Part shown: piece by piece, positions 51,399 to 52,688 of the stretch
Layout of the letters: every line of letters starts with the position of its first letter
Position numbering within the stretch: the stretch's first letter is position 1
NCBI GenBank assembly: GCA_946220775.1
Contig: CAMIFC010000001.1
Location: forward strand, 30,260-94,259
DNA from: an uncultured Corynebacterium sp.
GTDB taxonomy: Bacteria; Actinomycetota; Actinomycetes; Mycobacteriales; Mycobacteriaceae
Direction of reading: 5' to 3'
Length of the DNA stretch: 64,000 nt
The notes under the pieces: model-generated
Database searches by the model: none
What the model was told of the DNA's origin: nothing
Seen by the model: only the letters and a program-made list of their open reading frames with translations
Position numbers and translations under genes: made by a program

Positions 51399-51447
51399 CG
51401 GGGTGGTGCCGAGAACAACTCGGTCCCACCCCGTTTTTGTTGTGTTT
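51399..51447 (+). terminator. rho-independent terminator after fas-acpS
   Basis: GGGGTGGTGCCGAG-aacaa-CTCGGTCCCACCCC hairpin followed by GTTTTTGTTGTGTTT. Confidence 0.65.
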
Positions 51448-51708
51448 CTATCGCTGTGAGCTGGCCTTTTACGTGACCTTCATTACATAAGTTGTGTTGG
51501 GTAGGAAACAATCGGGGGTGGCGTTGTCTGATTGAAAGATAACTACATTTTTTCCCACCGACGCCGTGACCTGTTTCTTTACTAAAATGGATCTACATTT
51601 ATTGGGGGTAATTGGGGCTGTGACCTGCGAAACTCTCGTGGATTCTGGTTGGCGATCTCGCCTAGCGTGATGGGCGTTCACAACACGACATCCCACAGAG
51701 GAGTTTTC

Positions 51709-51831
51709 ATGTTCTTCATTCGCGAAGCTGCATCCATGGCCGAGTTCGGTACCTATATCTTTGGTGATGATGGCGCCCTGACCATCGAGGTCGACAACTC
51801 CGATCGTCTCTCTGGCGACATGTTGGCATAG
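51709..51831 (+). CDS. standalone 40-aa acidic small protein (MFFIREAASMAEFGTYIFGDDGALTIEVDNSDRLSGDMLA)
   Basis: ATG preceded by AGAGGAG at a 6-nt spacing; GC-rich third positions consistent with coding; an intrinsic terminator follows immediately. Confidence 0.5.
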   Translation: MFFIREAASMAEFGTYIFGDDGALTIEVDNSDRLSGDMLA

Positions 51832-51840
51832 TCTGCGGTA

Positions 51841-51890
51841 CGCGAAATCTTCGGCGGGACCACTCAAAGGTCCCGCCTTTCGCGTTTCTA
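51841..51890 (+). terminator. rho-independent terminator after the small ORF
   Basis: CGCGAAA..GGCGGGACC-actcaaa-GGTCCCGCC..TTTCGCG extended hairpin followed by a T-rich tract. Confidence 0.6.
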
Positions 51891-51906
51891 TCCTCGTTTT
51901 TTAGGA

Positions 51907-51926: not shown

Positions 51927-51980
51927 CACTGGTAGCGCAAGCGCCAAGTGTTGTCCGGAGCGCCGGTTAGAGTGATAAGC

Positions 51981-52688
51981 ATGAACCAACCAGCGAATAA
52001 TTCCACGCAGCATTTCAACCCCGGCCATATGCTCAGCTTTGATCTCGAGACCACCGGAACTGATCCACTGACAGCCCGCATTGTCACGAGTGCCATGGTG
52101 ACCATCAAGGGTCGGGACGTGCAGGATAAAGAACTGCTCGCCGATCCTGGCGTCGAAATTCCCGAGGGGGCGGCCGCGGTCCACGGGATCACGACGGAGT
52201 ACGCCCGGGAACACGGACGTCCGCATGATGAAGTCTTGGCCGAAACCATCGAGGCCATTAGGGCGGGGTGGCGGGCCGGTGCCACGTTGATCGTCTACAA
52301 CGCGGCATATGACCTGTCCATCCTGCGCGCGCAAGACCCTAGCTTTACCGTCGATGGGCTCGTGTTTGACCCCTATGTGGTCGACCGGAAGATGAACAAG
52401 TTCCGTAAGGGCAAGCGCACCCTGGAGAAGGTGTGTGAGGCCTATAAGGTGTCGCTGGATAATGCGCACGAGGCCACAGCAGACGCCATTGCTGCGGCAC
52501 GTGTGGCGTGGAAGATCGCTCGCGAGCATCCAGAGCTCACCCAAATGACTGCCGACGAGCTCATGCTGGCGCAGTCCACCTGGCACTATGAGGCGCAGAC
52601 GAGTCTCGCGGAGTACTTCCGCTCACGAGGGCGTGATACGAACGTCAACACCAGCTGGCCACTTCAGGAAGGGGAGCCCGCGTCGTAA
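51981..52688 (+). CDS. DnaQ-like 3'-5' exonuclease (DEDDh family)
   Basis: Exo I FDLETTG, Exo II YNAAYDLS, Exo III HEATADAIAAARV. Confidence 0.75.
   Translation: MNQPANNSTQHFNPGHMLSFDLETTGTDPLTARIVTSAMVTIKGRDVQDKELLADPGVEIPEGAAAVHGITTEYAREHGRPHDEVLAETIEAIRAGWRAGATLIVYNAAYDLSILRAQDPSFTVDGLVFDPYVVDRKMNKFRKGKRTLEKVCEAYKVSLDNAHEATADAIAAARVAWKIAREHPELTQMTADELMLAQSTWHYEAQTSLAEYFRSRGRDTNVNTSWPLQEGEPAS

Follow-up and report, generated by a model that had tools for sequence, protein, structure and literature searches.

How much can be made of an open reading frame (ORF) of only 40 codons that stands by itself between fas-acpS and an exonuclease gene, and if it is a gene, what might so small a product do? 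The question is raised by a stretch of Corynebacterium DNA of 64,000 nucleotides (nt), referred to below as the window, in which the ORF, whose translation is MFFIREAASMAEFGTYIFGDDGALTIEVDNSDRLSGDMLA, would specify a peptide of 4.4 kDa with 8 acidic and 2 basic residues. An earlier inspection of this DNA (the original prediction) had described it as an independently transcribed and regulated gene for a tiny acidic protein and had seen in it a faint resemblance to the DUF3117 family. An ORF of this length is unremarkable taken alone, as 51 ORFs of at least 25 amino acids (aa) overlap the surrounding 3.5 kb, so the reality of the gene has to rest on conservation. Judged by its conservation, the ORF is almost certainly a real gene under purifying selection, and the best explanation overall, which we hold with somewhat more belief than doubt, is that it is a separately transcribed gene for an acidic cytoplasmic micro-protein that acts by binding a partner.

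We retrieved 46 loci that surround homologues of the exonuclease encoded downstream and examined them for the small ORF by tblastn and a motif scan, and protein databases were searched with profiles (5.8 billion proteins) and exhaustively with phmmer (1.8 billion representatives). C. falsenii, C. glyciniphilum, C. kalidii, and others have the same small ORF in the same frame, either just before the exonuclease or after acpS, and the tblastn and profile searches yielded about 35 sequence clusters of homologues of 36-45 aa, every one from Corynebacterium and confined to one part of that genus, with profile E values between 1e-9 and 1e-19. Members include C. anserum, C. urogenitale (CUROG_06615), C. 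suicordis, C. terpenotabidum, C. variabile, and C. kalidii. The exact window peptide was absent from the protein collection searched; a sequence 98% identical to it (P0001) had profile scores of 4e-15 and 2e-10, and the nearest named relatives, which belong to subfamily A (see below), are 49-57% identical. The exhaustive phmmer search gave two true relatives of 40-45 aa among otherwise giant repetitive proteins, which we rejected as homologues since their scores are inflated by the summing of VCBS-like 'GTY..L.GDDG..TYT' repeats.

The homologues form two subfamilies that share the pattern M-F...[YF][ILF]FGDD...D-x-L-x. Subfamily A, which contains the window peptide, reads MFxxR[DN]...AN[AT]Y[IL]FGDD[EG]AL.I..DN[ST][DN]R[LI].DDMLI, and subfamily B reads MFN[LQ]LSREEI..[LM][ST].GA[NS]Y[FY]LFGDDE[AG][IL]AV.TP[ED][HY][DE]D.L. 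The family alignments show no change at M1, F18, G19, D20, or D21 and hardly any at F2 and D37, and L39 is kept in most sequences, while each peptide carries 8-10 acidic and 1-2 basic residues. The window peptide belongs here by its length, its M-F start, its FGDD core, its D-x-L-x C-terminus, and its position upstream of exonuclease and ilvA on the same strand. The family is already in databases in the form of unnamed "hypothetical proteins", much as the original prediction had supposed for a tiny acidic protein easily missed in annotation, and the window supplies an additional member in a rearranged context. No family name, Pfam or NCBIfam model, or published function was found for it, the literature search giving general small-protein papers only.

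Loss of the reading frame in relatives had been named beforehand as the observation that would count against a gene. What we found is that 16 loci, representing about 15 species, keep the frame, start codon, Shine-Dalgarno (SD) sequence, and length, with the clear marks of purifying selection. Comparison of the window gene with that of C. falsenii gives a synonymous divergence (pS) of 0.76 and a nonsynonymous divergence (pN) of 0.21 over 25 alignable codons, and dN/dS lies between 0 and 0.56 within subfamily B. Divergence by codon position in subfamily A is 0.33/0.23/0.50, highest at the third position, and across 15 loci the FGDD codons (TTT/TTC, GGT/GGC/GGA/GGG, GAT/GAC, and GAT/GAC) differ at third positions only. 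Conservation was not found for the 60-aa form of the ORF that begins at an upstream TTG. In the C. falsenii type-strain-like loci (L004, L047, and L048) an alternative start lies 6 codons before the usual one (MIFPPQ-MF...), and the SD is positioned to serve this longer form; these loci also carry tandem repeats of about 45 nt (catgagcatgacccggccacccagac...) in the leader, some 40-170 nt upstream of the small gene.

The local features that first drew attention to the ORF have largely held up. Its GC content by codon position (0.55/0.40/0.65) has the shape seen in fas, the exonuclease gene, and ilvA, as the remark about a coding-like third position implied, and the spacer upstream (51440-51708, 269 bp) is indeed poorer in GC than the whole window, at 47% versus 60.6%. 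The strong ribosome-binding site is where it was said to be, at a distance from the ATG of 5 nt rather than 6. The terminator claimed for the gene is also present as a hairpin with a T-run, with the limits now corrected to those given in Table 1.

Table 1. Positions in the window of the small gene, its presumptive control elements, and the promoter of the neighbouring exonuclease gene
Feature	Position	Strand	Basis or remark
CRP/GlxR-like site CGTGACCTTCATTACA	51472-51487	.	8/10 match to TGTGA-N6-TCACA; contains the third GTGACCT
Distal conserved element CGGGGGTG-N17-GATAAC	51513-51543	+	Abuts/overlaps the first CTACATTT; 15/16 loci, both subfamilies
Direct-repeat unit 1: CTACATTT (51543-51550) ... 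GTGACCTG (51566-51573)	51543-51573	+	Repeat statistics, alignment
Direct-repeat unit 2: CTACATTT (51593-51600), GGGGGT (51604-51609), GTGACCTG (51620-51627)	51593-51627	+	Repeat statistics, alignment
Proximal promoter-like element: -35-like TGGATT (51639-51644), 18-nt spacer, -10-like TAGCGT (51663-51668)	51639-51668	+	15/16 loci
Shine-Dalgarno sequence AGAGGAG	51697-51703	+	5 nt ahead of ATG; SD at equivalent place in 15/16 loci
Coding sequence of the 40-aa acidic micro-protein, TAG stop included	51709-51831	+	ORF list and comparative data
Intrinsic terminator: two-tier hairpin (51837-51888) and T-rich tail	51837-51902	+	Folding, compensatory change
PafBC-type promoter of the exonuclease, TGTCCG-N10-TAGAGT-N7-ATG	51952-51983	+	Consensus match; context, outside the small gene

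That the gene is transcribed as a unit of its own, as originally proposed, is supported by a conserved promoter-like box, by a terminator with a compensatory change, and by a separate promoter for the exonuclease. In 15 of the 16 loci, spanning both subfamilies, a -10-like TAG(C/T)NT has a TGG-type hexamer 18 nt upstream, and the heptamer TAGCGTG is common to 4 of the 5 subfamily-A species, where 0.02 such 7-mers would be expected; transcription may start from this TGGAyT-N18-TAGCGT element (TGGATT in the window). At the other end of the gene, the terminator hairpin begins 5 nt past the stop codon and folds at -30.5 kcal/mol (z = -4.6; 0 of 200 shuffles fold as well), and its tail, UUUCUAUCCUCGUUUUUU, ends in T6 at 51897-51902. 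A pattern scanner missed this terminator because the stem has an internal loop. A strain 98.3% identical to the window (L052) has an A-U to G-C compensatory change in the stem, and strong hairpins lie 3' of the small gene in most relatives.

The terminators on either side of the small gene resemble one another. That of acpS (51422-51452) and that of the small gene (51869-51892) share a 3' arm and tail (GGTCCCaCC...GTTTCTATC and GGTCCCgCC...GTTTCTATC), and the shared arms, 440-447 nt apart, make an imperfect direct repeat that flanks the whole small-gene module. They may be a trace of the joining of this module to fas-acpS; a similar pair was not noticed in the relatives looked at, among which no systematic search was made.

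The DNA ahead of the promoter-like element is itself conserved. In anchored alignments, a control region of about 200 bp consists of blocks that are collinear across both subfamilies, which is unusually elaborate for a gene of 40 codons, and within the 64-kb window its elements, CGGGGGTG among them, occur at no other locus. The internal spacing of the distal element, CGGGGGTG-N17-[TCG]ATAAC, is fixed in 15 of 16 loci, and the element could be a second promoter or the site of a regulator. Between CGGGGGTG and TAGCGT the distance is held at 137-152 nt in 13 species, and between TAGCGT and the ATG it varies from 41 to 173 nt, a four-fold range of leader length. RNAalifold detected no conserved RNA structure upstream (consensus energies -1.2 and 0 kcal/mol), and an Rfam scan gave no relevant match at the small-gene region, so we read the upstream region as control at the DNA level and not as a riboswitch or small RNA. 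Expression would then probably be set by this block-wise conserved DNA and not by an RNA leader. Other small ORFs in the spacer were considered and set aside, as their tblastx matches mirror the conserved DNA blocks and their lengths are not conserved.

The two imperfect direct repeats that had been pointed out in the spacer are real, and their copies (CTACATTT at 51543 and 51593, GTGACCTG at 51566 and 51620) stand at the positions first given, whereas the third GTGACCT is at 51473-51479 and not at 51483. Measured against 2000 dinucleotide shuffles of the spacer they exceed chance: three occurrences of GTGACCT have P ~0.03, three 8-mer repeat diagonals (0.5 expected) P ~0.014, and the collinear pair of 8-mer repeats P ~0.0015. 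The idea that they are a regulatory feature stands in part. Several copies fall inside conserved blocks, but other species do not conserve the repeats as a pair. The first GTGACCTG aligns with a conserved block TGTGnnCTG(CG) in 13 species, and the window GGGGGT within the second repeat unit aligns with the second of two conserved GGGGTG boxes that lie about 90 nt apart. The third GTGACCT falls within a site resembling the GlxR/CRP consensus TGTGA-N6-TCACA (PMC7999487). In the window this site is weak (shuffle P 0.14), and those of relatives match at 9 of 10 positions (P 0.000-0.014). Within the 330 nt scanned, 12 of 13 species have a site with 1-2 mismatches at the matching upstream position, and that of L004 lies just beyond. 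GlxR or a CRP-type regulator may bind at CGTGACCTTCATTACA.

The downstream gene encodes an epsilon-like DEDDh exonuclease (NCBIfam NF005927, E 5.5e-99) and carries a promoter that agrees with the PafBC consensus tGTCgg(N10)tA(N3)T (PMC8635444). As the TGTCCG-N10-TAGAGT promoter is placed N7 before the ATG, a leaderless exonuclease message is implied, and with a promoter of its own the exonuclease would have no dependence on read-through from the small gene. The arrangement TGTCCG-N10-TAGAGT-N7-ATG is conserved in nearly all of the Corynebacterium loci fetched (L001-L039, L053-L062), which suggests that the exonuclease may be a member of the LexA-independent DNA-damage regulon (PafBC/RecA-NDp). 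The promoter of the small gene does not fit the PafBC motif: the window has GGTTGG-N10-TAGCGT, in which the critical C is replaced, and subfamily B has TTCACC. There is also no LexA box ahead of the small gene, with one isolated exception in C. suicordis (L061), where a perfect LexA-like palindrome, TAGAACATGTGTTCTA (GAAC-N4-GTTC), lies 293 nt upstream; no comparable site was seen in the other 14 loci checked.

Conservation at the fas-ilvA junction, which had been proposed as a check, takes the form of a fixed downstream order and a variable upstream neighbour. In 16 of 16 loci the order is small gene, an optional cassette, exonuclease, an optional SDF transporter, and ilvA. Upstream stands fas-acpS in the window, C. 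falsenii, and C. anserum, a divergent ligA in subfamily B, and VWA-ligA in C. urogenitale. The optional cassette, four convergent genes that span about 3.6 kb, encodes an ABC ATPase, an ABC permease, a HisKA_3 kinase, and a LuxR-type response regulator. It separates the small gene from the exonuclease in C. anserum, in C. urogenitale, and in C. falsenii type-strain-like loci, among others (L053, L055, L056, L062, and L004). The window is without this cassette, an insertion/deletion polymorphism exactly at the junction of the small gene and the exonuclease. Because the cassette can separate the two genes, the small gene appears to be autonomous. Elsewhere in the window, Rfam recognizes an atpB RNA motif (RF02916; 11133-11262, forward strand; 99.3 bits, E 3e-20).

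Where the small gene came from is suggested by the loci that are without it. More distant Corynebacteria have ligA and the exonuclease gene in divergent orientation only about 100 nt apart, with nothing of the small gene between them, and the C. jeikeium clade has ligA-VWA-360 nt-exonuclease, again without it. From this absence we read the small gene as apparently inserted, or born, between ligA and the exonuclease in a limited taxonomic range and later lost in some lineages. Genomes of the C. jeikeium clade (L002-L011 and L032) gave no convincing remnant; what they do share, about 150 nt ahead of the exonuclease, is a conserved ATGTTCCC. It belongs to a conserved ATGTTCCC...GGAAAGTTCC stretch whose ORFs begin MF and run to 9-48 aa, and which could be a relic of a lost gene or an unrelated regulatory site.

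The sequence of the product offers few direct clues to function. No Pfam model reached even E <= 10 with the peptide, with the form extended to 60 aa, or with any of 22 relatives, and NCBIfam gave no match either. PADLOC and PHROGs had no match to the peptide or its relatives, and searches of phage, plasmid, and viral contigs for relatives came back empty. Named small replisome subunits such as theta/HolE found no match in the Pfam and NCBIfam scans. A profile search of the PDB returned chance matches only (E >= 0.28). In ClpC1 chains (8a8u and others), the segment ANFLFGDDDALI is similar to the core of subfamily-B peptides and FHQLTREEIIRM to their N-terminus; we rejected these segments of the D2 domain (LFGDDDAL, FHQLTREEI) as relatives, since they are not collinear and their E value of 0.35 is that of chance. 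The micro-protein family shows no Cys/His motif, signal peptide, or hydrophobic span. AlphaFold2 gave a mean predicted local distance difference test score (pLDDT) of 55.7 and 62.1 with two alignments, with a short N-terminal helix in subfamily B only and no confident structure for the invariant core.

A protein of this kind probably works as a disordered peptide that presents a linear protein-binding motif. The micro-protein would have no stable fold alone; its [YF][ILF]-F-G-D-D core and acidic D-x-L-x tail would fold onto a partner and modulate it. As for which partner, the downstream epsilon-like exonuclease, or another replication or repair protein such as LigA, the ancestral divergent neighbour, is a candidate that we put forward tentatively and would not expect to be correct. 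A fuller picture, in which the gene is a lineage-specific micro-regulator that arose between ligA and the exonuclease and modulates the damage-inducible exonuclease (or LigA/SSB-interacting machinery) under a CRP/GlxR-type metabolic input, strikes us as unlikely. If it were true, it would couple nutritional state to proofreading or mutagenesis.

Several observations weigh against this line of reasoning. The link to the exonuclease is one of gene order alone, and inherited synteny within one clade could account for it. The small gene is served by its own promoter and terminator, can be parted from the exonuclease by a 3.6-kb insertion, and, having a promoter of neither PafBC nor LexA type, is not obviously co-regulated with DNA-damage genes. 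Exonuclease alignment columns that track the presence of the small gene number 1 versus 0.43 expected, which is not significant, and a low pLDDT obtained from a shallow alignment is weak evidence for disorder.

The same gene order and acidic composition could also be read in other ways. One is that the ORF is a cis-acting leader peptide whose translation controls read-through of the hairpin into exonuclease-ilvA, so that the peptide matters only for ribosome stalling. The small gene does stand upstream of exonuclease-ilvA in the same orientation in every genome, directly so where the cassette is missing, its hairpin in the window follows closely on the stop codon, and in two species 34-36 nt separate it from the called exonuclease start, which leaves no room for a terminator. 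Set against this are the conserved exonuclease promoter with its leaderless placement, the convergent cassette that parts the two genes in at least 4 species, a stop-to-hairpin distance that drifts from about 5 to about 55 nt, the lack of a run of Ile/Val/Leu or other regulatory codons, and conservation that spans the N-terminus, the core, and the C-terminus of the peptide. With this balance we consider a leader peptide quite improbable. If instead the ORF were a chance frame in the 3' region of acpS, or part of a non-coding RNA, the local abundance of short ORFs and the absence of the exact peptide from the protein collection would be natural. But such a frame would hardly be preserved across two deeply diverged subfamilies with synonymous changes only in the core and with SD and start conserved; moreover, the acpS terminator lies 270 nt upstream, and there is neither an Rfam match nor conserved RNA structure, so this explanation is scarcely credible.

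Of the readings that accept a protein but not a partner, the simplest is an acidic peptide that binds cations or acts independently of any partner, as a metal buffer or chaperone. Eight to ten Asp/Glu per 40 residues, an invariant GDD, and the failure to predict a fold would suit it, yet EF-hand, DxDxDG, and His/Cys motifs are all missing from the peptides, the aromatic and aliphatic residues conserved around GDD look more like a protein-contact motif, and no metal-related neighbours occur in any genome examined; we give it a slim chance. A precursor of an exported or modified peptide (a ribosomally synthesized and post-translationally modified peptide or a signalling peptide) would typically have this size and a conserved core motif. 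It is nonetheless very improbable here, as the micro-protein lacks a signal peptide and a Cys/Ser/Thr-rich core, and its gene has no conserved neighbour for a modifying enzyme, a protease, or a dedicated exporter. The ABC/two-component cassette is convergent and found in some genomes only, and PADLOC and PHROGs are silent. The resemblance to DUF3117 in the original prediction came from a pattern alone, G-hydrophobic-L-x-[IV]-E-[LV]-x-x-[DS]-[DE], which fits the window sequence but not most family members. Membership, even a distant one, has next to no probability: the search against DUF3117 and other small-protein families that had been suggested for the 40-mer gave no match in the Pfam and NCBIfam scans described above, the 'IEVDNSD' stretch is variable within the family, and the homologues are restricted to Corynebacterium, while DUF3117 is broadly distributed across Actinobacteria.

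What is gained is a well-supported addition to the under-annotated micro-proteins of bacteria, a gene of 40 codons that is everywhere missed or called "hypothetical" and is under selection at the protein level. What the analysis adds is to demonstrate coding selection, to define the family together with its conserved control region, and to link the gene to a PafBC-type exonuclease locus. The fixed place beside a damage-type proofreading exonuclease is a concrete and testable lead, and EAASMAEFGTYIFGDDGALTIEVDNSDR, a stretch of the micro-protein, is named as a target for mass spectrometry; without the link to DNA metabolism, the micro-protein would be an ordinary orphan small protein. The genus includes opportunistic pathogens (the C. 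jeikeium/urogenitale/falsenii group, within which the C. jeikeium clade itself is without the gene), and other species in it, C. variabile and C. glyciniphilum, are those of cheese and fermentation.

Among systems that are better known, two E. coli proteins come to mind. Theta (HolE) binds the epsilon proofreading exonuclease, and DinI is a small acidic modulator of RecA. The analogy is functional only, that of a very small, acidic, non-enzymatic protein in a neighbourhood of DNA metabolism, here the NF005927 exonuclease and the ancestral ligA. The micro-protein differs from both in having no sequence similarity to them by Pfam, in being half their size or less with no predicted fold, and in its promoter, which is not of the DNA-damage type. 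DUF3117 proteins are likewise small and actinobacterial, and the window sequence has a loosely similar G-x-L-x-[IV]-E-[LV] stretch, but this stretch is unconserved in the family described here, there is no hidden Markov model match, and the taxonomic range is much narrower. Attenuator leaders and ribosome-arrest peptides likewise combine a short ORF, a strong SD, and a close hairpin with downstream genes, here for biosynthesis and repair; the small gene would seem to depart from them in that the gene it precedes is served by a promoter of its own, a cassette can come between the two, codon runs are missing, and the hairpin geometry is unconserved. With the family of hypothetical proteins of about 40 aa in Corynebacterium the comparison is of another kind: the window gene differs from its relatives in following fas-acpS with no ABC/two-component cassette before the exonuclease, and it has in common with them its length, the M-F start, the FGDD core, the D-x-L-x tail, and the place beside the exonuclease.

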